DNA from: Sedimentisphaera cyanobacteriorum
Lineage (GTDB): Bacteria > Planctomycetota > Phycisphaerae > Sedimentisphaerales > Sedimentisphaeraceae
Direction: 5' to 3'
NCBI RefSeq assembly: GCF_001997385.1
Contig: NZ_CP019633.1
Coordinates: 210,001-242,000 of the forward strand
DNA length: 32,000 bases
In this document: positions 1 to 29,768 of the stretch, in pieces
How positions within the stretch are numbered: the first letter of the stretch is position 1
Layout of the letters: every line of letters starts with the position of its first letter
Notes under the pieces: generated by a model
Database searches by the model: none
The model's input: the letters and a program-made list of their open reading frames with translations, nothing else
Told to the model about the DNA's origin: nothing
Program-made: the position numbers and the translations under genes

Positions 1-97
1 TCTAATCAGCCGTCCGGCGTTTTATTGTCATAATGCTGCTTAATTTTTGGCGGCTTTAATAAAAATTTCAGAAAAGATTCTCTTAAGGGAGAAATTT

Positions 98-3000
98 ATG
101 CCACATTCGTTAAAAATATTTCTGTTTGGGGCGATTGCCTTATCTTTGCTGCATGGCAATGCTGTACTTGGCGATGAACCCAGTTCAGCAAGCCAGATTG
201 TAATAGATACTGCCTCTGATAAATTTTCTCAAATCGGCTTTACAATGCTCAATGATCCAAATTCTTTTGGCGGAACTATTGCAGTGGGCGATGGGGGCAA
301 TTCTGCTCCAAGTTATGCCCGCTTCACCCCGAATATTGAAGGTCGTTTTGATGTGTATTTGTACTGGCGGGATTATCAGGATAAAGATGTTTTCGCTTAT
401 TGGAATGTTAAGCATACCGGCGGGATAACTACTCATCCTTTCATCCAAAAGGAAAACCCCGGCTGGCATTTTCTGGGTACATACCAGCTTGATGGTGATT
501 CTTACGTAGAACTGGACGGCACAAAAAAACAAAATGCTCAAATCGTGGCTGATGCTGTAAAGTTTGTTCCTGCAGCACAGCGTGTGGTTGAAAGAGCTGC
601 CAAAAATACTATTACACCGGTTGAATTGAATATTGGCGACGAATTCCATTTTACATTACGCAGCGGTCAGGTTCGCCGCATAAGATTGCTCTCAACAGAA
701 GCTCATATTACTGAAAGCCCAAACTACTCTTTTTCTGCCGAATTTGATATAGACGGAGAGAATTACCGTTTTGAGCGAATAGTTGCAGATCAGGCAAGTT
801 TTTACGAGCCGTGGGTGGTTAATGGAATGCGAATCTGGCTGGATGCTGTGAGCGATATCTTTGAGGATGACGGAGGCTGGATGGTTCACAGGACGAAATG
901 TCGTCCAAAACGGAAAGCCCGCATTGTGGTTAATGATTTGAGCGATCGAATCTGCCCGGAGCAAATTCATTGGTGGTATCCCGAGACACGCGAGAGCCCG
1001 GATATTCGAGACTGCTGGTATGGCAGAAATGTGTGGATAGGCCCGCAGAAACCAACATATACGCACGAAGGGCTGGATATTAATATGCCTCCGGAAACGC
1101 CGCTTTATGCCCCGATTGGTATTGATGACCATTACCTGTTCGATTCTTTGGAGGCAGGCGATATTAATAATCGCTGGCGTGGTGTTCGCCATTGGGATAA
1201 CGGGAGTACGTGGTGGCTCCAAGCGCACCATCTTGATGAAATGCTGGTGCCTGAACACGAAACTTTGAAGAAGGGCGAAAATTTTGCCCTTTCGGGGGGT
1301 GTTTACAGCGGCAGCCGTCCCCATACTCACTTTGCTTTTCGAGTTATTGAGGAAGGCCAAGCTTATTATATCGATCCATGGATTTTCTTTTGGCAGATGT
1401 TTAAAGATAATCCGCAGGATGAAATTGCAGAAGAGGATGAGTTGGTTTCTAACGGTGATTTTGAGCAGCCGCACAGGCCTGATGCCAACAATCTGCTGAT
1501 TGATGTGCCTAACTGGAATTCTATTGAAGGTACTCAGAAAAGAGTTAGGCTTGAATCCAAGTTTGTTGAAACCAGAAAATCTGTTCCGGGGCAGGAGGGT
1601 AATCAGGTGCTTCGGCTTCCCGCGGGAAACTCAACCGGAACAATTCGTCAGGTAATTGAGCATCCTTGGTCTTCAGGTGAACTTTTTCGCCTGAAATTTA
1701 ACGCATGCTTAGTTCGATGGCTTGCTAGCGCATCAGATGCAGTTATAAAGGCAAGCTTGCTTCAGGAGGATGGATCGCTTCTTTGGTCGTCCGAAATACC
1801 GATGACCTACACGCACACAGGCGATACAGAGGTAGGAGACTGGCTAGCCTGGCAGACTTTTGAGTTTCTTATAGATACTGATTCTTTTACTGGTTCAAAT
1901 ATTGATGAGGGAAGCAGCTTAATACTTCAAATAGAATTTCTGCAGCGAGACCATTGGGTGGATAATGTTTCGCTCAGTGTAATGAACGAATCGGATATTA
2001 TTAAATCTCAGCCAAACGACAAAATCGTGAATTGGGGCGATGGTGCAGGGTTTTCAGTGAGTATAGAAAATTTGTCTAATCCGGTTTGTCAATGGTACTT
2101 CTCAGAAAGCGGCGAGATTTCCCCGTCCACTGATAAGCCAAAAGGCACGCCCAGCATTAACCCTGACTTTTATATTGATAATGCCCAGCTCAGTGATGAA
2201 GGTTATTATTACTGCCAAGTAACCCACGACGGCGGTATGGTTTATTCGGATGTGGTGAGCTTGGCTGTTAAAAGAAAGGTGGCGCATTGGACATTGGATT
2301 TGTCTGACTATATAAGCTCAGAATACCTCCCCGGCAGCAGCGATAAATACATTGACAGCAGCGGGGAGGATAGGGATGCAATCTCTCAAGCGGCTCTGGA
2401 TATTGATGCATTTGTTCAGGGTGCTAATCCTGCTAAGACCAACGAAGGCCTCGATTTTGGCCAATATCCTGATGCAGCAGCACTTGCCGGCACCGATTCG
2501 CCCGCTGAATTAAGCGATGAAATGACTGTGTCTTTATGGGTAAAATGGGAAGGAGTTCCCGGCAGCTGGACAGGCATAATATCTAAACGCGAAGGCTCAG
2601 ACTGGCAAAGCGGGGCTGACTGGTTCTGGACAATATCGCCGACAGGCGATTCTATGAGCATCAGCTCGGCAGGTGTTGGTACTAAGAATATCTCTTATGA
2701 TCCGCCTGCCGTTGGCGAATGGACACATCTTGCCTTCACAGTAGATGCCGGTGGCGGAAAGCTCTACTATAATGGAGTCAAAGTTGACAGTGAGCCCGAG
2801 TTCAAGATAAATAAAACTGATGCCCAGCTTGTAATCGGGGGCAGTATTTTGCAGGATGACGGCACAATCAGCGGCGCATTCAATGGGGTTATGGATGATG
2901 TGCGCATCTATAATTACGCAAAGGATGAGGCTGAGATTGCAGATATCTGCTACGAGGTTACCGAAACTCCCGTTTGCAGCAATCTGCAGGATTTGGATCT

Positions 3001-14917: not shown

Positions 14918-17704
14918 ATGATGATAAAAAGCGTGATTAGGATTTCAGAATTGGTTGCATTTCTCGCAGTGATACTGTTTTTGAGCAGTTCGGCTCTATC
15001 TGCTGAGAATGTGTTTACTTATGATTTTACAGAGCTTGATGCGGAGGTTTCCAAAGGTGTCTCTTTGGAAGTTCGCAAAGATTCTGCGAAATGGTATGGC
15101 CGTGAGCAAGGTTACCAGCATGCATATCTTAGTGAAAAGAAGCAGTTCGTTGAATTTGCTGTTAATGTTCCTGAACCCGGGATGTATGCCCTGAAGGTAA
15201 AGCAGCTCAATCAACCTGATAACGGCATCTATCAGCTGCTTTTGGGCAGTGAAAATGATGGATTTGCTTTGGCTGGCGGCGGCCTGAAGATCGATCAGGC
15301 CGATCTCTGCGGAGAATACAGTTTTAGAAATGTCAATTTGGGCGTGCATCGTTTTCAGACAGCCGGCCTTAAAAAATTCAGGTTTAAGACTGTAGGCAAA
15401 AATAAAGACTCCAAAAGTTACAATCTCTCCTTCTCTGAACTGACTCTCATGAAAATCCTGCCGCTTGAGGTTTCTGATTTCTCAGATATGGAGTATGTGA
15501 GCGATGTTAATTCACAAGACGGCTTCTATTATCGAATAAAATCTGACGCCCCGGGTGAAGTTGTGAAGTATCCTGTTAAGGCAGAAAAGGAAGGTTTTTA
15601 TGCAATCGTAATACGAAACGTATTAAGCCCTGCGGGTGCTGAATACAAAGTGTCTTTTGATAATAAAAATTTAGGCAGCAAGATTGATTCCTTCAATCCT
15701 GATTTGCAGTATTCAATGTTTACAGCTGGCGTTATAGAAGTTGATTCCCCGGGTGAGCATATTGTAGAATTAAAAATCACAGGGAAGAATTCGATAAGTT
15801 CCGGCTACTCGTTAAATTTTGACACAATACGCTTGGTTGACCCGGATATTATCGTAACATCCGGGTGGGGTGTTAATTCAAGCAGGGTTAAAGGGTGGTG
15901 GCCGAAATCGACTTATGCAGATAATTACTACGGGAGATTCTACCGTTATTCAAGGGCGGGTCATACCCGTTTCTACCGTAATTTGAAACCCTCCGATGAG
16001 CCGGAAATAATAGCATGGTGGCCCTGGCAGCCTGATTTTCAAGGTTTTCTTGCTTCTGGATGGTATAATGTTTATTACTGGCTTCCCGACGGCGACCCTG
16101 ACCGTGCATCAAATGCGAAATATACCGTGCATCATATTTCCGGCCAAACAACCTACACCGTTGACCAGCGAAAGACAGGCGGAGAATGGAAACTGCTGGG
16201 CAGCCATTTCTTTGAGAAGGGGCGGGCAGGGCGTTCAGGGTATGTGGAGCTTTCGAACGATGCAGATGGTGTGGTTATTGCCGATTCGATCAAATATGAG
16301 TATGCTGAAAAACAGGGTTTAGAGCCGAAATCGCAATCTCTGCAAGATGCAGAGTCTGGTTCATACACAGTTCAGTTAGCTCAAGAGAAGCAAACCGTCT
16401 GGGGACTTGGCGTGGAGATCCAGCCGGAAGCCGAAAGGAGAGGCGGAATTAACCGCAGCAAGGGCATCCCGGGCGATTTAACCGAATCGGAGCGAAAGAG
16501 ATTCTATAATGAACTGCTCGGATTCGGCCATGGGTTCCGATATATGAGGCTTCCTATGGGGCTATTTTATACCGGGCTGGATGATGAGAAAAAGCAGTTT
16601 CAGCAGAATTGGAGCTCTCAGAACGAGCAGCTGGCAGAAATGATACAAGAATCCGGTATTGAAGGCTTTAATTTTGAATACTGGTCGCCAGCTCCGTATT
16701 TCAAATCTAACAATAGGTTTGTTGGCGGTTCTCTGAAAAAATTTGATGAAAAATTTTTGACTGAATTTGGCAATTCAATTGTTAAAGATTTAAAATATGT
16801 TCAGGAAAATATCGCACCTGTCAAAATGTTTTCTTTGCAGAATGAACCAACCGTTGGCGAAGCCGGCTACGGCTGCTGCGAGTATAGCGGGCAAGAATAC
16901 TGCGATACGTTTCGAGCAGTCGCGCCGATTGTTAAGAATGAATTTCCTGAGCTTTTTATACACGCCGACAGTCAGGCCGGCCAGTACGGCAAAGGCTCGA
17001 TACTTATTCGAGATGATTCCAAGGCGATTGAATATGTGGATGGCTGGTCTTGGCATCGTGTCGGGAAAAATTCTGATGAACAGATCAAGTACAGCGATTC
17101 GAAATTTAAGAAAGATACACAAGGCAGGCCTGTGCTGAACGTGGAATTTGAATATCTTGATGGTGCAGGTTCTCAGTGGCGATTTGTAAATACTGCTCAG
17201 TCTATTATGAATTGGTTTGCATTTAATGAGTCTCCTGCATGGTTCTGGCTGCACGCTCTAAAACCTACTGATACTCTTATAGGTGAAAGGTTTGGGCTTG
17301 GTTTTTGGCGGCCTTCAAGCGATAATGATTTTACCCGTTATGTTGACATCAAAAAGAATCACTGGCAGTACAATTGGTATCACTGGAACGCTATTGCCGG
17401 ATTCTTGAAGTATATGCCGTGGGATTCAGTTATTTGCCGTGTAGATGAAGACCAGACCCGAAAAAATCAGCGAATTCTGGCTTGGAAAACGCCTGAGGGC
17501 AAGTTGGTTCTTGCTTTAACCAATCGCTCTTGTGACGCACCTTTTAAATTCAATCTTGATGTCGGGGTTGATGCTGAATTTAAAGGATATCGCTATACTT
17601 CTCAAACCAGAAATAATATTGGAAAGTACGCAGGAATAAGACGGGGGCGGGAGTTTTCAAGGGAATTAAAGCCTTTTACTGTTGAGTTTTGGGTGCAGCA
17701 GTAA
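14918..17704 (+). CDS. Secreted GH30-like (clan GH-A) glycoside hydrolase with two N-terminal beta-sandwich repeats and a golvesin-C-like domain. Paralog of the C-terminal half of the 98..5857 gene.
   Basis: 928-aa ORF beginning 12 nt after the previous stop, with a signal-peptide-like N-terminus (LVAFLAVILFLSSSALSA). It shares blocks with gene 1: FRYMRLPMGLFYTGLD, IEGFNFEYWSPAPYFKSNN, MFSLQNEP (nt 16838..16849), VDGWSWH, a retained Glu in LNVEFEY, and the C-terminus EFWVQQ. Confidence 0.87.
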   Translation: MMIKSVIRISELVAFLAVILFLSSSALSAENVFTYDFTELDAEVSKGVSLEVRKDSAKWYGREQGYQHAYLSEKKQFVEFAVNVPEPGMYALKVKQLNQPDNGIYQLLLGSENDGFALAGGGLKIDQADLCGEYSFRNVNLGVHRFQTAGLKKFRFKTVGKNKDSKSYNLSFSELTLMKILPLEVSDFSDMEYVSDVNSQDGFYYRIKSDAPGEVVKYPVKAEKEGFYAIVIRNVLSPAGAEYKVSFDNKNLGSKIDSFNPDLQYSMFTAGVIEVDSPGEHIVELKITGKNSISSGYSLNFDTIRLVDPDIIVTSGWGVNSSRVKGWWPKSTYADNYYGRFYRYSRAGHTRFYRNLKPSDEPEIIAWWPWQPDFQGFLASGWYNVYYWLPDGDPDRASNAKYTVHHISGQTTYTVDQRKTGGEWKLLGSHFFEKGRAGRSGYVELSNDADGVVIADSIKYEYAEKQGLEPKSQSLQDAESGSYTVQLAQEKQTVWGLGVEIQPEAERRGGINRSKGIPGDLTESERKRFYNELLGFGHGFRYMRLPMGLFYTGLDDEKKQFQQNWSSQNEQLAEMIQESGIEGFNFEYWSPAPYFKSNNRFVGGSLKKFDEKFLTEFGNSIVKDLKYVQENIAPVKMFSLQNEPTVGEAGYGCCEYSGQEYCDTFRAVAPIVKNEFPELFIHADSQAGQYGKGSILIRDDSKAIEYVDGWSWHRVGKNSDEQIKYSDSKFKKDTQGRPVLNVEFEYLDGAGSQWRFVNTAQSIMNWFAFNESPAWFWLHALKPTDTLIGERFGLGFWRPSSDNDFTRYVDIKKNHWQYNWYHWNAIAGFLKYMPWDSVICRVDEDQTRKNQRILAWKTPEGKLVLALTNRSCDAPFKFNLDVGVDAEFKGYRYTSQTRNNIGKYAGIRRGREFSRELKPFTVEFWVQQ
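15839..17704 (+). repeat. Paralogous block copy 2 (golvesin-C-like plus GH30-like unit). Partner at 3986..5857.
   Basis: See copy 1. The two are collinear, of similar length (1866 versus 1872 nt), with no indels obvious by eye in the catalytic part. Confidence 0.9.
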
Positions 17705-18435: not shown

Positions 18436-19272
18436 ATGAAGAAATCAGTTTTGTTTGCAATCTTTTTAGTATTTGCAGCGGGTGCAGCAAAAGCCGCATT
18501 TAATGCTGTAGGAGTGTATGACGAACAGGATGTTCAGTCTAATCAAGTTGATTACGACATGGGTTATTCGAGCAACAGCTCATGGACAACAGGTATTGGC
18601 CAGACACTTGGTGATAATCAGATTTTAACTCTCCAAGAGTTTAAGCCTATGGTTGAACAAGCCTTTACGAACGGCCGCGGCGGAGTTGTTGACTTCGAAC
18701 ACCAGGGTACAATAGACGATGCTTCATCATTTGATGTCAAATTTGACGGGGGCAACAAGCAATTTACGGTAACCGCAACTGGAAATAGCGGCGCAGCCGG
18801 CACATTCAAGTTTGACGAGACCGGCGGTGACAGAACACCAATATCAGGTGCCGACAGGCTTCAGGGAAATAGTCAGTCCCTTGATTTTGACTTTAGTGAT
18901 TATATTGGTATGGAATCAGACGAAAGAATAAAGGCCATCGGCTGGACAATCCTCGGCCGAAGCAATTCGTCGGGCTCCGCTAACTGGCGGGTGATTGCTC
19001 GTTATACTAACGGCACAGATACCGGCAGCAGCAGTACCTTCCGCACGATAAATATGTCCAGCGGGGATACTACCCATGATAGTTTCTCGGGGATTGCTGC
19101 ACCTGATGGTTACTGGATTACTGGTATGAGGATAAACAGCGACCAGGGCGCTTGGTCAGCTCATGATGATTTTGGATTTGTAACAGTTCCCGAGCCCGCA
19201 ACTCTAGCGATATTTGGTCTTGGCGGCTGCATTGTTTCTCTAAATAAACGCAAACGCAGAAACGGCAGATAA
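18436..19272 (+). CDS. PEP-CTERM-anchored surface protein made of a signal peptide, one copy of an unrecognised ~230-aa module, and a PEP-CTERM sorting signal.
   Basis: 278-aa ORF with a strong SD GAAGGAG (18421..18427). The signal peptide is MKKSVLFAIFLVFAAGAAKA. The C-terminus VPEPATLAIFGLGGCIVSLNKRKRRNGR has the PEP motif, a TM helix and an Arg-rich tail, which is the canonical exosortase substrate signature. Confidence 0.9.
   Translation: MKKSVLFAIFLVFAAGAAKAAFNAVGVYDEQDVQSNQVDYDMGYSSNSSWTTGIGQTLGDNQILTLQEFKPMVEQAFTNGRGGVVDFEHQGTIDDASSFDVKFDGGNKQFTVTATGNSGAAGTFKFDETGGDRTPISGADRLQGNSQSLDFDFSDYIGMESDERIKAIGWTILGRSNSSGSANWRVIARYTNGTDTGSSSTFRTINMSSGDTTHDSFSGIAAPDGYWITGMRINSDQGAWSAHDDFGFVTVPEPATLAIFGLGGCIVSLNKRKRRNGR
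18496..19185 (+). repeat. Unrecognised ~230-aa module, copy A (most divergent).
   Basis: It shares these blocks with copies B and C: AVGVYDEQ.VQ.NQVDY, NSSWTTGIGQ.LG, FDGG.KQFTV.ATGNSGA, GG.RTPISG..RLQGN, F.FSD..GM, WRVIA.YTNG.D.GS, INMSSGDT..DSFSGI.AP.GYWIT. Confidence 0.85.
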
Positions 19273-19300: not shown

Positions 19301-20761
19301 ATGATGTCAAAGAGAATGAGCCGCAGACAGTTTTTGAGCTTGACAGCGATAGCTGGTACTGGCGCAGGCTTTCTTTGGGGATTATCTTCAGAGGCGAATT
19401 CTTCTGCTAATAAAAAGCCTAATATCATCTTTGTTATGCTGGATGATATGGGCTATGGTGATTTAAGCTTGTATGGGCAAAAACGGATTCGAATGCCAAA
19501 TATTGAACAGATGGCCAGAGAAGGAATCCGGTTTACTCAGGTTTATTCCGGCGCAACGATATGTGCTCCCGCACGCAGCACTCTAATGACCGGCCAGCAT
19601 ACAGGCCGCACCACAGTTCGAGGCAACTGGGGTGATCTCAAGCAAGGCGCAGTGCCCTGCAGCGGCGGCTCTGGGCCGCGAGTACCGCTGAAGGATGACG
19701 ATGTTACAATCGCAGAAGTACTCAAGGATGCCGGCTATGCAACCGGCATTACTGGAAAATGGGGGTTAGGCGAGCCTGATACTTCAGGCCTGCCTAACCG
19801 GCAGGGCTTTGATGAATGGTTTGGGTATCTCAATCAGCATCTTGCTCATTCACACTACCCTGAATATTTATGGGATAACCGGAAAAAGAAAAAGCTTAAA
19901 GGCAATACTGGCACAACAAAAAACTTTGCAAATCAATCACATTACAGCCACGACCTTTTCACTGATTTTGCAATGGATTTTATTAAGCGGCGCGGGGCTG
20001 GCGAAGCGCCCTTTTTCCTCTATGTACCTTATTGCCTGCCCCATGATTCCTTTCAAAACCCTGAAATCGAATCATATGCTTATGAAGCTGGCTGGTCTAA
20101 AAAGGAAAAAGTTTACGCTTCGATGCTAACCCGTGCGGACAGGGATATGGGAAAAATGTTTTCTCTGCTTACAGAGATGGATATTGATAAGGATACTATT
20201 GTTTTTTTCTGTTCAGATAACGGCGCAGCTAATCGCTATGAGGGCACTTTCAACAGTTCCGGAAAGCTGCGCGGGAAAAAACGCAGTATGTATGACGGGG
20301 GCTTGCGTACTGTAATGGTATTAAGGTGGCCAGGCCGTATCAAAGCGGGTGCTGTGAGCGATGATATTTGGTATTTCCCGGATGTATTGCCTACCTGCGC
20401 AGAGCTGGCCGGGGTTGCACCGCCTGGGAATATAGACGGGGTAAGTGTTCTTCCAAGCATCTTGTCTCAGCCGCAGCCGCAGCTCTACAGTCGACCGCTG
20501 TATTGGGAAGACCATGAAAGAGGTTTTCGCTGTGCAGCGAGAAAGGGTAACTGGAAATTTGTCTGCAATGATGTGGATAAGCCTCCCGAGGTTTACAATC
20601 TCTCAGATGATATTGGTGAGGAAGAAAACCTTGCTGAATCGAATCCTGAGCTTGTTAAATGGTTCTGGGATTTTGTTAAAGAATCACATAAGCCATCAGC
20701 AAATTGGCCTGTCCCACGGTTAGATAAAGGTGAGGGTGAAATTTCAAATCGAGTTTTATAA
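19301..20761 (+). CDS. Cys-type (formylglycine-dependent) sulfatase, arylsulfatase A / GalNAc-6-sulfatase-like, with twin-arginine (Tat) signal.
   Basis: 486-aa ORF. SRRQFLSLTAIAGTGAG is a Tat motif. PNIIFVMLDDMGYGD and the sulfatase signature ICAPARSTLMTGQHTGR (C-x-P-x-R) are present, as are GKWGLG and FFCSDNGA. The start could be ATG 19301, 19304 or 19316. Confidence 0.93.
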   Translation: MMSKRMSRRQFLSLTAIAGTGAGFLWGLSSEANSSANKKPNIIFVMLDDMGYGDLSLYGQKRIRMPNIEQMAREGIRFTQVYSGATICAPARSTLMTGQHTGRTTVRGNWGDLKQGAVPCSGGSGPRVPLKDDDVTIAEVLKDAGYATGITGKWGLGEPDTSGLPNRQGFDEWFGYLNQHLAHSHYPEYLWDNRKKKKLKGNTGTTKNFANQSHYSHDLFTDFAMDFIKRRGAGEAPFFLYVPYCLPHDSFQNPEIESYAYEAGWSKKEKVYASMLTRADRDMGKMFSLLTEMDIDKDTIVFFCSDNGAANRYEGTFNSSGKLRGKKRSMYDGGLRTVMVLRWPGRIKAGAVSDDIWYFPDVLPTCAELAGVAPPGNIDGVSVLPSILSQPQPQLYSRPLYWEDHERGFRCAARKGNWKFVCNDVDKPPEVYNLSDDIGEEENLAESNPELVKWFWDFVKESHKPSANWPVPRLDKGEGEISNRVL

Positions 20762-20792: not shown

Positions 20793-23039
20793 ATGAATAA
20801 TATCAAAATTATATTGGCGCTGTTTCTTTTTCTTGGCTGCGGATTAACCTTCGCTGCCACTTTTGAAGCTGTAGGCGTTTACGACGAACAGGACATGCAG
20901 GCTAATCAAGTTGATTACAGTATGACCTATTCAGACAATTCTGTATGGACAACAGGTATCGGCCAAACCCTTGGAGAGAGTCAGGTAATGACGTATGAAG
21001 AATTCAAGGTGATGGTCGAAGAATATTATTTAGATGGTGATGGAGGAGTAATAAATTTTGATAATGCGGAAATGAGCGATTCGGCCTCATTCGCTGCGAG
21101 TTTTGATGGAGGCCAGAAACAGTTTACAGTGAATGCGACGGGAAATTCAGGTGCTAGCGATACAGTTCAAAACACATCTTCCGGAGGGAATAGAACGCCC
21201 ATCTCCGGCGATAAAAGACTCCAGGGCAATACGAACAGGTATGAATTCGAATTCAGCGATTTTACAGGGATGGACCCGCAGGACATAATCGCCGCAGGAA
21301 TCACTGTTCTCGGCAGAGACGGCAGCAGCGACAGCTGGTGGCGCGTTATTGCATATTACACCAACGGAGAAGACTCAGGAAGCACAAGCACCTCAAGATA
21401 TATCAATATGAGCAGCGGAGACACAACTGAGGACAGTTTCTCAGGAATAAGGGCGCCTGAGGGATACTGGATTACAAAATTGCGTGTACATTGCGATATA
21501 AGCTGGACATGGAGCGCGGCAGATGATTTGGGCTTCGTGTTTGAATCGTCAACTAAGCCTTACGGGCCTTCTGTAAGTCAGACTGCCCAGCCCGGCGGGG
21601 TAGATGCAGTTCTTTCATGGCAGGCTGGTCCTGATGAGAATGATGTTTATGCTGTGAACCCCGACATTGTTGATCAGTACGTTTTTATGACAACTGGCGG
21701 GGATGACCCGAACCTTTATTACGTTGGAGCTGCAGGCGAAGACCCGGGCACTGAAGATCCTTCCTCAGAATATGCCGTTTCAGACCTCAATTATGATGCT
21801 TCTTATCAGTGGGCAGTCGTAGAGGCTCTTGACGGATACGAGCAGAGCTTAACCGTAGGGGTAAGTGAGCTTGAGGATGTTAATGAAAATAATATCATCG
21901 GTTCAGTATGGAGCTTTGATACGCTTTCAAGCGTTCCGGTTATAGAAACTCAGCCTGCAGATGTTCTGGAAGATGCAGGAGAGGATGCTTCGATTTCTGT
22001 TGAAGTCAGCAGCGTGTCTCCTGAGCAGTATCTCTGGTATAAATCTGATGATAATTCTAGCGATACTCCCGAAGATGACGTTGAGGCAGGCAGCTCTTCA
22101 AATACACTGAATCTGGACAGCATTGCTGTTGCCGACGAAGGATACTACTATTGCGTTATAACAAATAACGGCGGGTCTGTTACTTCTGATACCGCCAACG
22201 CAGCAGTAAAGCGTCAGATGGCGCACTGGACATTTGATCAGGCAGATTATTCCGGCGGGCAGTATCTTGATGTCAGCAGCGATGATGATGTTTATTATCC
22301 CGCAGACCCCAACGGAACACCCGCATTTAATACAGGTATCGATGGTGATTCGATTCTGATTGACGAGGTAAACAGCTGGGCTCGTGCAGGTACGTGGAAT
22401 CCTTCAAAGTATTCCAATCAGCTTACTGTAAGCGCTTGGGTTAAATGGGATGGAGATACTTCATCCCACAAAGGAATTGTAAGCAAGCGTGATATCTGGG
22501 GAAGTGAAACTATGCTCTGGAGTTTGATAATTAGAAATGAATATCCGGGCGGTACTGTCCGTTTTTACAACAGCAGCGGACTAAGCGTTTGGACAAGCGA
22601 ATCTCTTCCGATTGATGAATGGACGTTGATAACAGCAGTCTTTGACGGCTCAGAAGGCAAAGTTTATTTCAATGGATTAGAGAAGGCTTCCGGAAGCGGC
22701 AGCCTATCTTCTGGAACAGAGACTATGATTATGCTGGGTGCTGTAGATAATCCTTCTGTCAACGAAGAATTTGACCCGCTCAGCGGCAGCGAACTGGATG
22801 ATGTTCAAATTCTAAATTATGCAGCAGATAAATTCGCTGTGGCTGATATGTACTATGAAGTTACAGGCATAAAATCCTGCATATTAGATTATGAGTCTCA
22901 GCTCGATGTTGCAAATACCAACACCGACCTTGTGATAGGGCAGGAAGGCTTTGAGCCTGATTGCGTTATCGATATCTCTGATTTTGCTGCTCTTGCCGGG
23001 AATTGGCTAAGCTGCGGATTATACCCTGAGTGTGAATAA
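20793..23039 (+). CDS. Secreted protein: signal peptide, unrecognised ~230-aa module, WSF(D/T)T-type beta-sandwich, Ig-like domain, LamG/ConA-like domain, Cys-bracketed dockerin-like C-terminal tail.
   Basis: 748-aa ORF with SD GAGGAG upstream. The signal peptide is MNNIKIILALFLFLGCGLTFA. Motifs: LSWQAG...YQWAVVEA...GSVWSFDT; VADEGYYYCVITNNGG (Ig); VSAWVKWDG...LDDVQILNYA (LamG); and the end EPDCVIDISDFAALAGNWLSCGLYPECE. Confidence 0.88.
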   Translation: MNNIKIILALFLFLGCGLTFAATFEAVGVYDEQDMQANQVDYSMTYSDNSVWTTGIGQTLGESQVMTYEEFKVMVEEYYLDGDGGVINFDNAEMSDSASFAASFDGGQKQFTVNATGNSGASDTVQNTSSGGNRTPISGDKRLQGNTNRYEFEFSDFTGMDPQDIIAAGITVLGRDGSSDSWWRVIAYYTNGEDSGSTSTSRYINMSSGDTTEDSFSGIRAPEGYWITKLRVHCDISWTWSAADDLGFVFESSTKPYGPSVSQTAQPGGVDAVLSWQAGPDENDVYAVNPDIVDQYVFMTTGGDDPNLYYVGAAGEDPGTEDPSSEYAVSDLNYDASYQWAVVEALDGYEQSLTVGVSELEDVNENNIIGSVWSFDTLSSVPVIETQPADVLEDAGEDASISVEVSSVSPEQYLWYKSDDNSSDTPEDDVEAGSSSNTLNLDSIAVADEGYYYCVITNNGGSVTSDTANAAVKRQMAHWTFDQADYSGGQYLDVSSDDDVYYPADPNGTPAFNTGIDGDSILIDEVNSWARAGTWNPSKYSNQLTVSAWVKWDGDTSSHKGIVSKRDIWGSETMLWSLIIRNEYPGGTVRFYNSSGLSVWTSESLPIDEWTLITAVFDGSEGKVYFNGLEKASGSGSLSSGTETMIMLGAVDNPSVNEEFDPLSGSELDDVQILNYAADKFAVADMYYEVTGIKSCILDYESQLDVANTNTDLVIGQEGFEPDCVIDISDFAALAGNWLSCGLYPECE
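20856..21545 (+). repeat. Unrecognised ~230-aa module, copy B.
   Basis: It aligns collinearly with copy C (25455..26141) and copy A (18496..19185). All copies are the same length to within one codon. Confidence 0.9.
21191..21498 (+). repeat. Near-identical nucleotide tract within module copy B. Partner at 25787..26094.
   Basis: My by-eye alignment finds about 10 mismatches in 308 nt. This includes a perfect run of about 90 nt (ggcgataaaagactccagggcaatacgaacaggtatgaattcgaattcagcgattttacagggatggacccgcaggacataatcgccgcagg). Confidence 0.9.
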
Positions 23040-23052
23040 TAAAACCTTATCC

Positions 23053-23095
23053 GGGACCGGCTGGCCTGCAAGGGTTGGCTGGTTCCAGTTTTTTT
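23053..23095 (+). terminator. Rho-independent terminator after the module-Ig-LamG gene.
   Basis: The arms GGGACCGGCUGGCC (23053..23066) and GGUUGGCUGGUUCC (23073..23086) pair over 14 positions, 5 of them G-U wobbles. The loop is UGCAAG, and the stem is followed by AG plus a T7 run. Confidence 0.65.
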
Positions 23096-23142
23096 CAAAA
23101 GCACAAAACTCAATCTGTTAAGAAAATTATAAGGAATGATTC

Positions 23143-23376
23143 GTGAAAAATTTACTCTCTTTAATGGCTGTCATTTTAATATTTTCTGCTGCCGGCAAAA
23201 GCTTTGGCGAAACCATAACTATAGATAATGATATTCAAACCTACACATCCCTTGCTGATACTGCAGTAAATATCACCGGCACCTCAGAGCTGCACCTTTC
23301 CGGCAGCGCGACTGTATTAGATAACTGTCAGATAAATTTGAATTCTGCGGAAGCTTGGCTTTTTTTTCATCTCTGA
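23143..23376 (+). CDS. N-terminal fragment (signal peptide plus the first ~55 mature residues) of the downstream large protein, separated from it by a frameshift in a T8 run.
   Basis: GTG start at 23143 with AAGGAA 6 nt upstream. The signal peptide is MKNLLSLMAVILIFSAAGKSFG. The fragment ends ...NSAEAWLFFHL* immediately after the T8 run at 23360..23367, and the reading continues sensibly in the -1 frame. Confidence 0.6.
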   Translation: MKNLLSLMAVILIFSAAGKSFGETITIDNDIQTYTSLADTAVNITGTSELHLSGSATVLDNCQINLNSAEAWLFFHL

Positions 23377-26300
23377 AGCCCTCTGAGGTCAATTCGCCAG
23401 TTTATCTCAGCCAAATTTATGTAAGCGGCACACAGTCTGCATTGAATTCAAATATTAGAATAGTACGTTACCATAACGGCGCTGTTTTAATTCCGCATGG
23501 CGAGGATTATGAGCCGCTTAAAGTGTACAGCGGAATGAACTTTACTGGCAGTTCCCTCAGCCTCGGCCTGCATACCTATTACAAAACTGACCAGCTCGGG
23601 TTTATGAACGATTCAATTCGCTCTTTTACTTTGAAACGAGGCTATATGGCCACATTTGCCGAAAATAGCGACGGTACAGGAATCAGCAGAGTTTATATAG
23701 CAGACCAGAAGAATTTGAAAATTGGAGTTATGCCCGCAAATCTTGATAAATCTGTTTCGTTTGTCCGGGTGTTCCCATGGCACTGGACAACCAAAAAAGG
23801 CTGGGCAGGCGGAACTCCAAGTTATGTTTCAGGTTCGGCTTCTGAAGCTTTGAATTGTTCATGGCGGTATGACTGGGGCAATGGCGGAGAGACTACTCTG
23901 GATGTGGAATATGTTCCGATGAGACACGGCCCAACATGGCCGAGCTATTCTGTAACCAACGCAAAGGAAAATGTAACGCATGTGCTGGGATTTAATGAAC
24001 CCGACCGGCCGGATCAGGCTGATATGTCAGTTTCAGAAGCGATTGACAGATGGCCGAATCTGCTTGCCTCAGGCCTGCGTTTAGGAGCGCCTTCGCCCAG
24101 CGACGGCGGCCTGAACTGGCTGTATGATTTTATTGATCAGGCCGATGCCTTGAACTATCGTGTAGATTTTGTCCCAGTGCATTTTTATAAAAATAACTGG
24201 TCTGCCTCACAGATGTATAATTGGCTGAAAGCCGTGCACGAAAGAACAAAAAGACCTCTCTGGATTACTGAGTGGAACAACGGCTGCAACTGGACAGCCC
24301 CTCATCCCACATACGAGCAAAATGGCGATAAGATTGCGGAGCTGCTTTCAATGCTTTCCACCGCTTCATTTGTGGAAAGATATTCAATCTATCAGTGGTG
24401 CACAAATCGTGAGATGTTTTATGATGACGGCTGGATTACCCCTGCGGGCAATGCCTACAAGGACCATGTCAGCTTCCCAGCGATATCATTAGACCAAAAC
24501 AAGGAATGTATTGGTTTTTACAAACTCGATGCACCTAACGGAACTTCGGCTGTTGATTTGTCCGGCAAGCAGATGGAAGCCGGCTTGAAAAACGGCCTCT
24601 CATTTGATAATGATTCTGTTCAGGGAATGCGGGGATATGCCCTTAGTTTGGATGGTGATGAGTATATTGAATTGCCCGATGGATACGATGAACTGGAAAA
24701 TGGCTTTTCAGCTTCCTTCTGGGTATATCCGACAGCGGTGAAATCGTATGCGAGATTCTTTGATCTCGGCAATGGCCCAAATGGAGATAATATCGTAGCC
24801 GCAAGATATAGTGATACTGATGATTTATATTTTAAGGTATATAATAATGCCACCGGCGGCACTATGGTTCGGGCTTCCAATGCCATAGAGCTGAATAAGT
24901 GGCAGTTTTTTTCTGTTACAATTGACAGCATTGGTAATGTGAAGATTTATAAAGATTCACAGCTTATCAAAACAGGCACTTCCTCGCCGCCTCGGAGTGT
25001 CTTTAGAAGCTCAAATTTTATAGGCCGCAGCAATTGGCCTTACGATGGATATTATGAGGGCAGGATAGATGATATTCGTTTGTTTGATTATGCTCTCAAT
25101 GAAAATGAAATTGATGCCTTGTTTAATATAAGTATGACTTCAGAGCCTTATGACGGAACACCTGCTGATATACCCGGCCAAATCTCAGCTGAACGTTTTG
25201 ATTTAGGAGGGCAGGGCATTGCTTATTACGATTCTACAATAGCAAACGAGCAGGGAGCTTTCAGGTCGGGTGAAGACGTGGATATTCGGGGCGTTTTTGA
25301 TTATTTTAACAGCTTTGCGGTAACCGATATCGAACCTGATGAATGGCTTAATTATACAGTTAATATTCCCGATTCTGACAATTACTGTATGTACCTGCGT
25401 GCCAGTACAACTTTAAACGAAACTCCAGTTCTAATTAAACATTTCACTTACCCTTTTTTTGAGGCTGCAGGAGTGTATGACGAACAGGAGGTTCAGACTA
25501 ATCAAGTTGATTACAGTATGAGCTATTCGAGCAATTCCTCATGGACAACGGGTATCGGACAAAACCTTGGAGCAAGTCAGGTTATGACGTATGAAGAATT
25601 CAAGCCGTGGGTGGAAGAGAAATACTTAAGCGGCAATGGAGGCGTGCTCAATTTTGATAATACCGAGCTCGGTAGTTCAGAGTCTTTCAATGCAGTCTTT
25701 GCCGACGGGCAGAAAAAATTCAGCATTACTGCAACCGGCAGCTCGGGTGCAAGCAGCTTTGTCAACAATACAGCTTCCGGAGGCGGTAGAACGCCCATCT
25801 CAGGCGATAAAAGACTCCAGGGCAATACGAACAGGTATGAATTCGAATTCAGCGATTTTACAGGGATGGACCCGCAGGACATAATCGCCGCAGGCATCAC
25901 TGTTCTCGGCAGAGACGGCAGCAGCAATGCCTGGTGGCGCGTTATTGCATATTACACCAACGGAGAAGATTCAGGAAGCACAAGCACCTCAAGATATATC
26001 AATATGACCAGCGGAGACACAAGCGAGGACAGTTTCTCAGGAATAAGGGCGCCTGAGGGATACTGGATTACAAAATTGCGTGTACATTGCGATAACAGCT
26101 GGATTTGGAGCGCTGTGGACGACTTAGCTTTTGTTTTTGAAAATCAGGCACAAAGTTCTTCGGTTGTGGAATTAAGCAGTTTAGAAGAACAAATGCTTGC
26201 CGAGTTTACAGTCAGTAGCACAGGTTCTTCTGATAATTTCAAAACCTTTGTACTCAATGATGTGATTTTGCCTGCTGGCGGAAGTAAGCTTTTGCGGATG

Positions 26301-27452
26301 GAATTTCCGGTTGGCGGGCTTGATGTAAACTGGCTTAGAATTGAGAAAGAAGGGCATTGGAGCGAAACTCCCCCAACGATTCCGGGAAGGATTCAGGCTG
26401 AAGAATACGACTTCGGCGGTCCCGGCAAAGCGTATTACGACACTACTTTTGATAACGCCATCGGCGATTTTAGGTATTATGAAGATGTTGATGCTGCTGA
26501 TATCGGTGATTCTGGAAGCCGGTATGCAGTAGGCGGTATTGAGGCAGGTGAATGGCTCAGATATACAGTGAACAGTAATGAGGGGGCAGCAGATGTATAT
26601 GCCAAAGTTGCTTCTGTTCAGTCCGGAGGCCAAATCTTTGTTCGGATTGATGGTGAGCTTTCGGCCGTTATTGATGTTCCCAATACATGCGGATTAACAA
26701 ACTGGCAAATTATTCCCGCACCTTGTGAAACATTGCCGGAAAATCAGAATGCTTTAGTTGAGCTTGAATTTGCAGGGGAGGGCTTCCAGCTGGATTGGGT
26801 ACAGTTCGCAAAGCAGATTCCCTATCCGGAAAATGTTCCGCACTCAATTCCCGGCCAGATAGAATTTGAGGATTTTGATACCGGCGGCCATGATATAAGC
26901 TTTTATGATACAACTCCTGCAAATACTTATGGCGGGTATCGGCCTGATGAAGCCGTGGAAATTGCTGCTGTAAATGACGGATTTGCTGTGTATGCAGAAG
27001 CCGGCGAATGGCTTGAATACACCGTTGATTTAACAGGCGGAAACTATGATCTCTCAATTCTTTCCGCAGGGCCTTATTCCGGTCAGCAGCTTACATTATC
27101 TCTTGATGGGAATCATATTGTGTCTGCAGATTTGAATACAACAGGAGGCTGGTCAGACTGGCATACAACCGTGATCCCTGATTTGGTCCTCCCGGACGGG
27201 CAGGGACAGGTTTTGCGGATGAAATTGGATAGCTCAAGCGCTTTCATCGATAATATGAGCTTTATCAGGCATTATAATCCCGCAGATATTGACCAGAGCA
27301 CTAAGGTTGATTTAGAAGATTTTTCGATATTAGCTGATCAATGGCTTGATGCACCGGGCGAGCCGTCCGCTGATATTGCAAAACCTCCGAACAATCAGGT
27401 AGGAATAGAGGATTTACTGATTCTACTTGAAAACTGGCTTATAGAGGAATAA
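23355..27452 (+). CDS. Large secreted multidomain protein (body of the frameshifted gene): Glyco_hydro_cc-type (PF11790, GH128-like, clan GH-A) catalytic domain, LamG domain, CBM6 interrupted by the ~230-aa module, two intact CBM6 domains, dockerin-like C-terminal repeat pair.
   Basis: 1365-aa ORF. The TTG at 23355 is probably not a real start (see the frameshift). Catalytic blocks: SWRYDWGNGG, VLGFNEPD (acid/base Glu), VDFVPVHFY, PLWITEWNNG (nucleophile Glu). LamG: FSASFWVYP...GRIDDIRLFDYALNENEIDALF. CBM6 starts: IPGQISAERFDLGG, IPGRIQAEEYDFGG, IPGQIEFEDFDTGG. Tail: KVDLEDFSILADQWL...VGIEDLLILLENWL. The GH128 link is tentative. Confidence 0.85.
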   Translation: MAFFSSLKPSEVNSPVYLSQIYVSGTQSALNSNIRIVRYHNGAVLIPHGEDYEPLKVYSGMNFTGSSLSLGLHTYYKTDQLGFMNDSIRSFTLKRGYMATFAENSDGTGISRVYIADQKNLKIGVMPANLDKSVSFVRVFPWHWTTKKGWAGGTPSYVSGSASEALNCSWRYDWGNGGETTLDVEYVPMRHGPTWPSYSVTNAKENVTHVLGFNEPDRPDQADMSVSEAIDRWPNLLASGLRLGAPSPSDGGLNWLYDFIDQADALNYRVDFVPVHFYKNNWSASQMYNWLKAVHERTKRPLWITEWNNGCNWTAPHPTYEQNGDKIAELLSMLSTASFVERYSIYQWCTNREMFYDDGWITPAGNAYKDHVSFPAISLDQNKECIGFYKLDAPNGTSAVDLSGKQMEAGLKNGLSFDNDSVQGMRGYALSLDGDEYIELPDGYDELENGFSASFWVYPTAVKSYARFFDLGNGPNGDNIVAARYSDTDDLYFKVYNNATGGTMVRASNAIELNKWQFFSVTIDSIGNVKIYKDSQLIKTGTSSPPRSVFRSSNFIGRSNWPYDGYYEGRIDDIRLFDYALNENEIDALFNISMTSEPYDGTPADIPGQISAERFDLGGQGIAYYDSTIANEQGAFRSGEDVDIRGVFDYFNSFAVTDIEPDEWLNYTVNIPDSDNYCMYLRASTTLNETPVLIKHFTYPFFEAAGVYDEQEVQTNQVDYSMSYSSNSSWTTGIGQNLGASQVMTYEEFKPWVEEKYLSGNGGVLNFDNTELGSSESFNAVFADGQKKFSITATGSSGASSFVNNTASGGGRTPISGDKRLQGNTNRYEFEFSDFTGMDPQDIIAAGITVLGRDGSSNAWWRVIAYYTNGEDSGSTSTSRYINMTSGDTSEDSFSGIRAPEGYWITKLRVHCDNSWIWSAVDDLAFVFENQAQSSSVVELSSLEEQMLAEFTVSSTGSSDNFKTFVLNDVILPAGGSKLLRMEFPVGGLDVNWLRIEKEGHWSETPPTIPGRIQAEEYDFGGPGKAYYDTTFDNAIGDFRYYEDVDAADIGDSGSRYAVGGIEAGEWLRYTVNSNEGAADVYAKVASVQSGGQIFVRIDGELSAVIDVPNTCGLTNWQIIPAPCETLPENQNALVELEFAGEGFQLDWVQFAKQIPYPENVPHSIPGQIEFEDFDTGGHDISFYDTTPANTYGGYRPDEAVEIAAVNDGFAVYAEAGEWLEYTVDLTGGNYDLSILSAGPYSGQQLTLSLDGNHIVSADLNTTGGWSDWHTTVIPDLVLPDGQGQVLRMKLDSSSAFIDNMSFIRHYNPADIDQSTKVDLEDFSILADQWLDAPGEPSADIAKPPNNQVGIEDLLILLENWLIEE
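23360..23367 (+). other. T8 homopolymer at the frame junction. It is a candidate indel, phase-variation or slippage site.
   Basis: The sequence is c-tttttttt-c. With T9 the reading would be ctt ttt ttt tca tct ctg aag, giving ...AWLFFSSLKPSEV... in a single frame. In the 0 frame the run also forms the heptamer T_TTT_TTT. Confidence 0.8.
25455..26141 (+). repeat. Unrecognised ~230-aa module, copy C, nested inside the first CBM6.
   Basis: The sequence PFFEAAGVYDEQEVQTNQVDYSMSYSSNSSWTTGIGQNLG...GYWITKLRVHCDNSWIWSAVDDLAFVFE is flanked by CBM6 N-half and C-half sequence. Confidence 0.9.
25787..26094 (+). repeat. Near-identical nucleotide tract within module copy C. Partner at 21191..21498.
   Basis: Same alignment as for the partner. 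Identity drops sharply upstream of 25787, and more gradually downstream of 26094. Confidence 0.9.
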
Positions 27453-27611: not shown

Positions 27612-29768
27612 TTGAGAAACCAGATTAGTACAATAGCATTGAAGTTACTTTCAGTGTTAATTTTAATTTTTTTCGCAGTCAGCCTTCAAGCACGAGTCAT
27701 CGATTACGTTGATGTATTTGTCGGCACAGAAGCTGATCACGGCCAGATGTATCCGGGTGCTGCTCTGCCTTTCGGGCTTGTGAAGTTAAGCCCCGATACC
27801 TCCTCTAAAGGCCATGCCGGATATGATTACTCGTGCAGAGAAATAAAAGGCTTTTCACATACAAGGCTTGGAGGAGTAGGCTGTTCTGGTGCAGGGGGGA
27901 GTGTAAGGATTAAGCCGTCATTTGGAATGAAAACGGCTGACACTCTCGATAAGTCATCAGAAAAGGCATGGCCAGGCTTTTACAGTGCTTGTTTTGAAAA
28001 TGGGATTAAAACTGAGCTAACGGTATCATATCGAGTAGGATTTCATCGATACACCTTCCCTGTTTCAAAGGAGGATGTCTGCATACTTATTGACCTTTCT
28101 CAAAGTTATGCAGGCAGTATTGATTCAGGGTGGGAAAAGATTGCTTCTGATACAATAGCAGGCTTCACCAAAGGGAAAAACGTTTGCGGTAACGGCTTTT
28201 ACAAGCTGTATTTTGCCGTCAAGTTTGACCAATGCTTTGATGGAATTGAACGAAGCGGCAAATCTTTATGGAGCAGATTCCCCTCTGCCTCAAAAGACAG
28301 GGACGCAGTTATTAAGCTTAAGGTTGGTATTTCACCAGTCAGTGTTGAAAAGGCTGTAATGGAATGCAGAAAGGACCTTCCCGGATGGGATTTCCAGGCG
28401 CCAAGGGAAAACGCCGAAAAGATATGGGAAGAAAAGCTTGGTAAAGTCGAAATCTTTGGGGTTAGCGGTGAGCTTGAAGAATTTAGGGATTTATTTTATA
28501 CTTGCCTGTACCGTTCTTACCTGCTGCCTCATAACGTAACCAGCAGCGACGGATTTTACAGGCCGGCGGGCAAACAGCAAACTATCCGCAAAACGGCAAA
28601 TCAAAGCCGCAGTTTCGATTATTATTCCGGCTGGAGCAGCTGGGATGATTATCGCAAGTACAGCCTTGTATCCCTGCTTGAGCCTGATATTTTAAGTGAT
28701 ATCGTCCTTTCAGCTTTAGATATGTTTGCCGGCGAGGGGATACCTGCCTGGGCAGAGGGATACTGGCCGTCGCCTTCGGTTAGAAATGAGTTTATCAATA
28801 CCATAATACTTGATACAATCCAAAAAGGACTTGTAGAGTATGACTTAGAAAAAGCTTATTCAGGGATCATTTCTTCCATAGATGGCAATGAGCAGGTTGA
28901 GAAGCCCTATCAATACTATATTGCTATGAAAATCGCCGAGATCCTTGAGAAGAAACAGGACATTCAAAAGTTCAGGAAAAAAGCACTTTCATACAAGGAC
29001 TTTTGGGCAGAATCTCAAGAAGACGGGGAAGGCAATGTGAGAGGTTTTTTTACTCCTGACGGTGAAATCGTCCCGAAGGAATCGGTGAATAAAGTGGATG
29101 CTCATTTCTATGAGGGCTCACTGTGGCATTATCGTTTTTTTGTACCTCATGATATTTATGGGCTTGCCTCGCTGAGAGGAGTGGGGGAAAAACTGGCGGA
29201 TGATTTGGAATATTATTTCAATTCATGGAAGCATATGGCGCTGAATGAACCTCCCTTAGCATATCCCTTCTTGTTTAACTTTCTCGGCCGGCCATACCAG
29301 ACACAGTATTGGTCAAGGGTTTACATTACTGATACTGTTATGAGCCGATATCACAATCACGGCAAGTTTGACAGCCCTGTTATCAGAAGGGTATATAAAA
29401 AACAACCTGCCGGCTGGCTTGAGACAATGGATGATGATACCGGTGCTATGTCGAGTCATTTTGTTTTTTCCGCAATGGGGCTTTTCCCTGTGTGCATGGG
29501 CGAACCTTATTATGTTATAGGATCGCCGCTTTTCCCCAAAATGGTTTTGCATATGAAAAACGGGGATTTAGTGATAGAGGCTGAAAATGCATCATTGTCT
29601 AACAAGTATATACAGTCTGTAAGTTGGAATGGGAAAGACCTTGCCAACACATGGCTAAGCTATGAACAAATAAAACAAGGGGGGAAGCTTGATATGGTGA
29701 TGTCAGATACCCCAAATATGCAATGGGGAAGTGATAATTCGGCGGCTCCGCCTTCTCTCTCAAAATAA
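27612..29768 (+). CDS. GH92 family alpha-mannosidase (exo-alpha-1,2/1,3/1,6-mannosidase class), secreted.
   Basis: 718-aa ORF with a TTG start, AAAGAG upstream, and the signal peptide LLSVLILIFFAVSLQA. GH92 blocks: VDVFVGTEADHGQMYPGAALPFGLVKLSPDT, IKGFSHTRLGGVGCSG, FYEGSLWHYRFFVPHDI, DDDTGAMSSHFVFSAMGLFPVCMGEPYYVIGSPLFPK, NKYIQSVSWNGKDL. Confidence 0.93.
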   Translation: MRNQISTIALKLLSVLILIFFAVSLQARVIDYVDVFVGTEADHGQMYPGAALPFGLVKLSPDTSSKGHAGYDYSCREIKGFSHTRLGGVGCSGAGGSVRIKPSFGMKTADTLDKSSEKAWPGFYSACFENGIKTELTVSYRVGFHRYTFPVSKEDVCILIDLSQSYAGSIDSGWEKIASDTIAGFTKGKNVCGNGFYKLYFAVKFDQCFDGIERSGKSLWSRFPSASKDRDAVIKLKVGISPVSVEKAVMECRKDLPGWDFQAPRENAEKIWEEKLGKVEIFGVSGELEEFRDLFYTCLYRSYLLPHNVTSSDGFYRPAGKQQTIRKTANQSRSFDYYSGWSSWDDYRKYSLVSLLEPDILSDIVLSALDMFAGEGIPAWAEGYWPSPSVRNEFINTIILDTIQKGLVEYDLEKAYSGIISSIDGNEQVEKPYQYYIAMKIAEILEKKQDIQKFRKKALSYKDFWAESQEDGEGNVRGFFTPDGEIVPKESVNKVDAHFYEGSLWHYRFFVPHDIYGLASLRGVGEKLADDLEYYFNSWKHMALNEPPLAYPFLFNFLGRPYQTQYWSRVYITDTVMSRYHNHGKFDSPVIRRVYKKQPAGWLETMDDDTGAMSSHFVFSAMGLFPVCMGEPYYVIGSPLFPKMVLHMKNGDLVIEAENASLSNKYIQSVSWNGKDLANTWLSYEQIKQGGKLDMVMSDTPNMQWGSDNSAAPPSLSK

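Follow-up and report, generated by a model that had tools for sequence, protein, structure and literature searches.

Two copies of a protein module of about 228 residues, encoded 4.6 kb apart in a 32,000-nucleotide (nt) stretch of the Sedimentisphaera cyanobacteriorum genome (contig NZ_CP019633.1, positions 210,001 to 242,000 of the forward strand; hereafter, the window, numbered from its first letter), are nearly identical over ∼310 nt in the 3' half of their coding sequences. Intrachromosomal (ectopic) gene conversion between these two copies, referred to below as modules B and C, is very probably the explanation of this tract. The comparison of orthologous loci, proposed as a means of dating in an earlier reading of the window by a model that saw the sequence alone (the original prediction), would place the homogenization after the split from Sedimentisphaera salicampi, at about 0.3 of the species divergence (synonymous divergence, dS, of 0.083/0.29). 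The module is present three times in the window (A, B, and C), as located by tblastn, and the copies and their segments are as follows:

18499-19188, + strand: module A, the entire mature part of a stand-alone PEP-CTERM protein of 278 amino acids (aa); outgroup paralogue

20862-21545, + strand: module B, 228 aa, which follows the signal peptide as the N-terminal domain of a 748-aa Ig_3 + Laminin_G_3 protein

25458-26141, + strand: module C, 228 aa, nested in the first CBM6-like domain of a glycoside hydrolase (gene C)

21191..21498, + strand: putatively converted tract in module B, the probable donor; 22/308 differences from its S. salicampi orthologue, the same rate as in the upstream flank (12/169)

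25787..26094, + strand: putatively converted tract in module C, the probable recipient; the maximum chi-square segment

C 25803-25894 = B 21207-21298, + strand: longest run of perfect identity, 92 nt

C 25618..25786 (B 21022-21190), + strand: N2, the apparently never-homogenized segment and likely barrier at the upstream tract edge

C 25926..25930, SS[NA]WW (B 21330-21334, DS), + strand: two-codon hypervariable patch in the tract (tract offsets 139 and 141-143), with 4 of the 10 B-C differences

C 25464..25555 (matching A 18505-18596), + strand: older stretch of A-like sequence with which module C begins

Modules B and C are directly repeated with a spacing of 4596 nt. Tracts 21191-21498 and 25787-26094 differ at 10 of 308 positions, as opposed to 107 of 376 in the remainder of the module. 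A maximum chi-square scan of every possible segment of the 684-nt module alignment returned exactly this pair of tracts as the best B-C segment, with a chi2 value of 75.9 that was reached in 0 of 300 permutations. At the protein level, there are 34 amino-acid differences in the first 110 residues versus 4 in the tract (module residues 157, 158, 184, and 189). These figures agree closely with the original prediction, which had put the genes 4.6 kb apart and had counted about 10 nucleotide differences between the same coordinates, a perfect run of about 90 nt, and about 36 amino-acid differences in 112 residues, against 4 in about 103 within the tract.

Synonymous sites, evaluated by the Nei-Gojobori method for each codon zone of the module, follow the same division. 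In the tract, there are 5.0 synonymous differences per 63.7 sites (dS of 0.083); in codons 53 to 109, which cover the ∼170 nt before the tract, 31.2 of the 37.2 synonymous sites differ, which corresponds to saturation, and in codons 0 to 52 the dS is 0.52. The contrast between the tract and the N-terminal part is highly significant (Fisher p = 1e-11). The B-C pair consists of three zones: a moderately similar N1, a very diverged N2, and a nearly identical tract. The upstream edge of the tract is sharp, with the last paralogue-specific sites at B 21189-21190 and C 25785-25786, directly before the RTPISG codons. The descriptions of the synonymous sites in the tract as essentially unchanged and of its upstream edge as lying just before the RTPISG block were thus accurate, and a uniform dS along the module, with which the original prediction would have been at odds, was not found.

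Dating and orthology rest on three syntenic loci. The locus from S. salicampi (L001, CP021023.1) shows 84 to 92% nucleotide identity to the window and carries the orthologues of all three copies (As, Bs, and Cs). The second locus (L006, GCA_002239625.1) comes from a strain that differs from L001 by 1.07% over 13.9 kb; its C copy is referred to as C6. The third one (L007), of metagenomic origin, belongs to a distant relative in which the genes follow the same order, and its B orthologue is referred to as B7. A protein word-index search with module B retrieved only stand-alone A-type PEP-CTERM proteins; B- and C-type copies were found by an exhaustive profile search, two matches of which led to L006 and L007. 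Scans of genome contigs and metagenome contigs yielded only distant relatives (L002 to L005) that were of no use for dating. An exact-match look-up of the 748-aa protein returned no record of it. Among named relatives, a PEP-CTERM protein of S. salicampi is closest to copy A, and the window species is probably sister to S. salicampi. Only two Sedimentisphaera species have been described (PMC11266412).

In the tract, the paralogues within the window are closer to each other than either is to its orthologue. The numbers of differences per 308 nt are 10 for B-C, 16 for Bs-C, 22 for B-Bs, 32 for C-Cs, 34 for B-Cs, and 36 for Bs-Cs, and the B-C value is lower than those for B-Bs, C-Cs, and Bs-Cs with Fisher p values of 0.04, 6e-4, and 9e-5, respectively. 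This order of distances points to conversion after speciation. The 169 nt of N2 show the orthologous pattern, with 12 differences for B-Bs, 25 for C-Cs, and 66 for B-C. The same is seen in the site patterns: in N2, 40 sites have B = Bs versus C = Cs and none have B = C versus Bs = Cs, whereas the tract has a single orthology-type site, 5 sites with B = C versus Bs = Cs, and 3 crossed ones, so that orthology-type sites make up 1 of the 9 informative sites in the tract versus 40 of 40 in N2 (p = 2e-8). The 5 sites with B = C represent window-specific derived states common to both copies, of which N2 has none. Substitutions private to C number 0 in the tract, where ∼16 would be expected, versus 9 in the 169 nt of N2 (P = 7.5e-8); those private to Cs number 22 in the tract. 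The case for gene conversion made in the original prediction is strengthened by these comparisons, in that synonymous sites are homogenized only in the tract and the paralogues there are closer than the orthologues.

The same counts bear on a simpler history, in which the tract was homogenized, or partially duplicated, once before speciation, followed by fast evolution of the S. salicampi C copy and slow evolution of both window copies, with no later conversion. Such a history would account for the nearly equal dS values of Bs-Cs (0.295), B-Bs (0.286), and C-Cs (0.248) and for the fact that the excess divergence of Cs is mainly nonsynonymous (nonsynonymous divergence, dN, of 0.075 to 0.085 versus 0.02 to 0.03). 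However, it is very improbable, given that the B-C dS of 0.083 is approximately one third of every cross-species value. If B and C had last had their sequence in common before speciation, 22 to 27 or more differences would be expected instead of the observed 10 (Poisson P of 0.0035 to 1.6e-4), and neither the five derived states common to B and C nor the lack of C-private substitutions would be anticipated.

The orthologous dS values in the tract, 0.290 for A-As, 0.286 for B-Bs, and 0.248 for C-Cs, are normal, so neither protein selection nor nucleotide selection explains the B-C identity. The original prediction had reached the first half of this conclusion, arguing that selection on the protein alone was insufficient. 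An antisense open reading frame (ORF), a regulatory site, or an RNA embedded in the tract could place the nucleotides as such under selection, as might be suspected from the minus-strand ORF 25577-25927, which overlaps the C tract, and from an identical promoter-like match in both copies. Yet copy B has no equivalent minus-strand ORF of at least 100 aa, the Rfam search gave no match, promoter and terminator scans were at chance level (21 promoter-like matches versus 18.2 expected), and in sliding-window comparisons the C tract is 87 to 95% identical to its orthologue, which is no higher than the gene average. Together with the orthologue comparison, which effectively refutes it, this makes nucleotide-level selection scarcely credible.

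Several points weigh against gene conversion after speciation, or at least against its precise placement. The sister lineage is a single one, represented by two close S. salicampi-type genomes, so the timing relies on few sites; the difference between B-C and B-Bs reaches only p = 0.04 in total differences and 0.016 in synonymous ones; and support for the (B,C) grouping is modest, with 5 sites versus 3 crossed and 1 orthology type. In the assembly, reads of one copy might have polished or bridged the other to produce a chimeric tract, and a 1-nt indel in gene C of the same window (see below) could be a consensus error. Judged from the assembled sequence, such an artifact is nevertheless extremely improbable: 10 differences remain and are spread through the tract, with 4 of them in a 5-nt patch, the protein from the window is recorded on a contig of 2.95 Mb, a sign of a finished genome, and two independent assemblies from the sister species contain the same tract of reduced divergence.

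This reduced divergence suggests that conversion between B and C has been recurrent, rather than a single event. In S. salicampi, a scan of the Bs-Cs pair revealed 37 differences in 330 nt inside the same segment versus 101 in 354 nt outside, a contrast reached in 0 of 200 permutations. Given that the Bs-Cs dS in the tract (0.295) is about equal to the species divergence, the two copies were nearly identical there around the time of speciation, so that the tract was already, at least partly, homogenized around or before the split. Comparison with B7 sets an older limit. In N2, the B, C, and B7 copies are equidistant (66 to 73 differences in 166 to 169 nt), whereas in the tract B and B7 differ at 121 of 308 positions and B and Cs at 34, which indicates that the older homogenization postdates the split of the L007 lineage.

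A further exchange appears to be recent enough to separate strains. The Cs and C6 copies do not differ in the remaining 376 nt of the module and yet show 8 differences within 45 nt at the upstream tract edge (approximately positions 19552-19596 of L001 and 12646-12690 of L006), against a gene background of ∼0.3% (P of about 3e-12). At most of these 8 sites, C6 carries the B-type base. This patch is best read as a short recent B-to-C conversion in the L006 strain; the alternative is that Cs was altered by an unseen donor.

Orthologous divergence is uneven in other parts of the module as well. The B-Bs pair has 23 differences out of 86 in the first 83 columns (window 20862-20945) versus 42 out of 598 after that, and the C-Cs pair has only 1 difference out of 137 in columns 33 to 169 (window 25491-25627). 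Further small exchanges or interstrain recombination are possible reasons for this unevenness.

These odd distances, and the limitation of the view to 32 kb of the genome, could be taken to favor replacement of both tracts by a third, unseen donor, either another paralogue in the genome or DNA from a relative. That is very improbable, as the window tracts fall within the Sedimentisphaera B/C clade, only 14 to 22 differences away from the S. salicampi B copies, neither the window nor the syntenic loci contain a third copy of the B/C type, and the copy located 4.6 kb away suffices without any extra element.

The position of the tract can be related to the local length of perfect identity. Homologous recombination depends on perfect identity over at least a few tens of bases. 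The longest perfect B-C runs are only 12 to 14 nt in N2 and 21 to 24 nt in N1. In the tract, they reach 92 and 70 nt in the window and 37, 30, and 27 nt in S. salicampi, where they are taken to represent the state before the latest event in the window lineage. Given the length requirement, N2, with runs of at most 14 nt, should be unable to sustain exchange, which leaves the tract and, marginally, N1. The exchange thus appears to be confined to the segment that retains perfect runs of about 27 nt or more. N2 itself seems never to have been homogenized and would set a fixed upstream endpoint; with N2 acting as a barrier, the sharp edge before the RTPISG codons, common to the window and S. salicampi, would be expected, and conversion would be self-reinforcing. 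Selection against conversion of N2, should a copy-specific function reside there, could add to this boundary effect.

In the proposed scenario, a break or a stalled fork in one module copy would be repaired by a RecA-type homologous pathway with the other copy as the template, followed by correction of the heteroduplex; the transfer would be nonreciprocal and would involve no change in length. Each such event would restore identity and make the next one likelier, so that the 3' half of the module would undergo concerted evolution while the 5' half diverges. The pattern of homology lengths between B and C would agree with RecA-dependent exchange.

Transfer from B to C is the favored direction, albeit with some reserve. 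In the tract, both window copies have the amino-acid states of the S. salicampi B copy (dN of 0.02 to 0.03 to Bs and 0.07 to 0.075 to Cs); combined with the strain-level patch in a C copy, this suggests that sequence moved from B to C. On the other side, B and C are about as far from Bs as from Cs at synonymous sites (0.20 to 0.32), and the excess divergence of Cs, being mostly nonsynonymous, could reflect faster protein evolution of Cs and not the retention of ancestral C-type states. The outgroups A and B7 (∼39% diverged; A differs from B and C in the tract at ∼39 to 40% of nucleotides) give mixed signals in polarizing the Cs-specific states, as they are too diverged, so the direction is kept as probable only. 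The three crossed-pattern sites are found at two places, two in the SS[DS/NA/TD/DG]WW patch and one at a T/S codon near tract offset 236. The patch reads DS in B, NA in C, TD in Bs, and DG in Cs, and its crossed sites have B like Cs and C like Bs.

Module C opens with a stretch that resembles module A, with 12 differences in 92 nt versus 258 in 589 nt elsewhere (chi2 of 31.5, 0 of 300 permutations). The same stretch is seen in S. salicampi (As-Cs, 17 of 110). A and C have synonymous states in common there, and B and Bs have diverged from it independently of each other, which suggests an older exchange between A and C.

Domain shuffling, which the original prediction had offered as an alternative to gene conversion, does not account for the tract, as the location of module C does not vary among the three Sedimentisphaera-type loci and no indel accompanied the exchange. 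It does, however, explain the presence of the module in gene C on a longer time scale. The hydrolase orthologue in the distant relative (L007 12555-16121) can be aligned with gene C over the full length, apart from a clean gap of 247 residues at module C (residues ∼695 to 942; window 25437-26180), and its first CBM6-like domain is intact and without the module. The same nested arrangement occurs in an unrelated hydrolase, P0027. Module C accordingly appears to be an old nested insertion into a CBM6-like domain.

The gene that carries module B has a mosaic history of its own. S. salicampi encodes two Ig/LamG genes (L001 12405-16706), one for a 734-aa protein with module B and one for a 682-aa protein that has another head; over ∼900 nt in the middle the two genes are 93 to 98% identical, and in the tails ∼57%, which makes for another mosaic tract. 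The window has a single Ig/LamG gene, for the 748-aa protein, which corresponds to the 734-aa gene in its head; the 682-aa gene has an N-terminal domain of its own that the window lacks. The tail of the window gene (22481-23100) is 77 to 96% identical to the 682-aa gene per 100-column window (84 to 96% beyond about 22580) versus 42 to 72% to the other tail. Amino-acid identities of the tail are 89% and 56%, respectively. A loss of sequence by unequal recombination in the lineage of the window, together with conversion in S. salicampi, would be consistent with this mosaic (window 21584-23100), and the locus is evidently prone to homologous exchange.

Gene C has one base fewer than its counterparts in both S. 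salicampi-type genomes, with a run of eight T residues at 23360-23367 where S. salicampi has TTTTCTTTT. As a result, its first 71 codons, including the signal peptide (GTG start at 23143), are out of frame with ORF 23355-27452, and the upstream frame ends with a stop at 23374-23376. Either the frameshift is real, and gene C is a pseudogene or prone to slippage, or the consensus is in error at this point; in both cases, the argument for conversion is unaffected, as it rests on nucleotide comparisons.

The module family comprises 1171 clusters at 50% identity in the exhaustive profile search; most members are stand-alone proteins of 250 to 300 aa, and some are located inside large multidomain proteins. 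The 228-aa module had no match in Pfam, NCBIfam, or the sequences in the PDB, and was therefore not assigned to carbohydrate-binding modules (CBMs) by any sequence profile in these databases. An AlphaFold2 model built from a 21-sequence alignment has a mean predicted local distance difference test (pLDDT) score of 86.6 and a predicted TM-score (pTM) of 0.87 and consists of 14 strands and one helix in an all-beta sandwich. Foldseek comparison with the PDB produced weak matches, mostly to CBMs, including 8wc1 (a pectate-lyase CBM), 1h6x and 1dyo (CBM22), and 2w1w (CBM35), with E values of 0.008 to 0.04 and TM-scores of 0.49 to 0.55 when normalized by target length and 0.32 to 0.41 by query length; for the best hits, 8wc1, 1h6x, and 1dyo, these ranges are 0.008 to 0.03, 0.52 to 0.55, and 0.37 to 0.41, respectively. 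Such matches were too weak for the module to be placed in a CBM family. Similarly to CBM22, CBM35, and 8wc1, the module is predicted to form a beta-sandwich, and it adjoins CBM6/35, LamG, and glycoside hydrolase (GH) domains in proteins of the carbohydrate-active enzyme (CAZyme) type; at 228 aa, however, it is larger than typical CBMs. It can be tentatively viewed as a CBM-like beta-sandwich of an undescribed family, for which neither Pfam nor NCBIfam has a model, and could be characterized as a candidate glycan-binding module. The tract encodes module residues 110 to 213, which cover strands 118 to 211 of the model, and the hypervariable patch, the last part of the loop after strand 142-150, lies immediately before strand 158-167 and borders directly on it.

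It is doubtful, although conceivable, that the homogenized C-terminal seven strands are not a neutral by-product but are maintained because both proteins must present an identical surface. Such a surface could serve a common docking partner or glycan epitope for the secreted Ig/LamG protein and the hydrolase. If so, the diverged N-terminal half would provide copy-specific specificity, and gene conversion would keep the modular glycan-degrading machinery matched.

Gene conversion between bacterial paralogues is well documented, and the current understanding of this process is not changed by the case described here; what is new is a clean instance in an undescribed module family. The tufA and tufB genes of Salmonella are one example of such conversion. 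Others are the class I release factor genes (PMC4530459), which undergo ectopic conversion and concerted evolution, rRNA operons, which evolve in concert by gene conversion (PMC6002687), and the antigen families of Mycobacterium tuberculosis, with conversion between paralogues (PMC13061034). The B-C pair resembles these systems in paralogues that are more alike than orthologues over discrete tracts and in homogenized synonymous sites and recurring events; transfer between dispersed copies in one genome, nonreciprocal in these systems, may be so here as well. It differs from them in that the unit is half a domain in two genes of otherwise different architecture, as opposed to whole genes, and in that the tract has a fixed endpoint, apparently set by a strongly diverged neighboring segment.

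The pilE/pilS system of Neisseria generates antigenic variation by cassette-type gene conversion. As in that system, homologous recombination appears to transfer part of a coding region from a paralogue in the vicinity; however, the B-C pair has no silent donor cassettes, the conserved half is homogenized and the variable half left untouched, and diversity is reduced. A, B, and C all lie in long ORFs, and there are only three copies in the window, which is not the organization of cassette-based antigenic or phase variation; the apparent lack of any exchange of the variable N2 segment is likewise contrary to cassette-type variation.

The B-C tract offers a well-resolved case of concerted evolution below the domain level in a little-studied phylum (anaerobic Phycisphaerae), one in which the site where recombination ends can be related to how long the local runs of perfect identity are. 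It has practical consequences: phylogenies or dS-based dating of these CAZyme modules would mislead unless the tract is masked, and the 97%-identical direct repeat is a potential substrate for deletion of the 4.6 kb between B and C, a fusion comparable to the one already seen in the B gene.

The three modules belong to a glycan/polysaccharide-degradation gene cluster, with the following genes, all on the + strand:

18436-19272, + strand: 278-aa protein with a signal peptide and a PEP-CTERM motif, carrying module A

19301-20761, + strand: sulfatase

20793-23039, + strand: 748-aa protein, Ig_3 + Laminin_G_3, carrying module B

23053-23086: strong terminator-like hairpin

23143-27452, + strand: gene C, full extent, Glyco_hydro_cc + Laminin_G_3 + split CBM6-like domain with module C + two CBM6/35 domains

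23355-27452, + strand: gene C, ORF as listed, glycoside hydrolase with Glyco_hydro_cc + Laminin_G_3 + CBM6/CBM35 (Pfam)

27612-29768, + strand: GH92

The PEP-CTERM sorting motif of the module A protein was recognized at residues 250 to 270 by PF07589 (23.1 bits; cutoff, 20.7), as well as by TIGR02595 (24.6 bits; cutoff, 16); it was not found in the B and C proteins.

Elsewhere in the window, the C-terminal ∼590 residues of a 1936-aa ORF (47-5857) and a 928-aa ORF (14918-17704) are paralogous (3988-5769 versus 15841-17616), with ∼72% nucleotide identity; only local stretches of higher similarity, up to 87% over 55 nt, and no near-identical tract were seen in this pair. In S. salicampi CP021023.1 (L001 10918-12377), the sulfatase gene adjacent to copy A is broken into two ORFs (275 and 204 aa); the L006 strain (481 aa) and the window (486 aa) have it intact.

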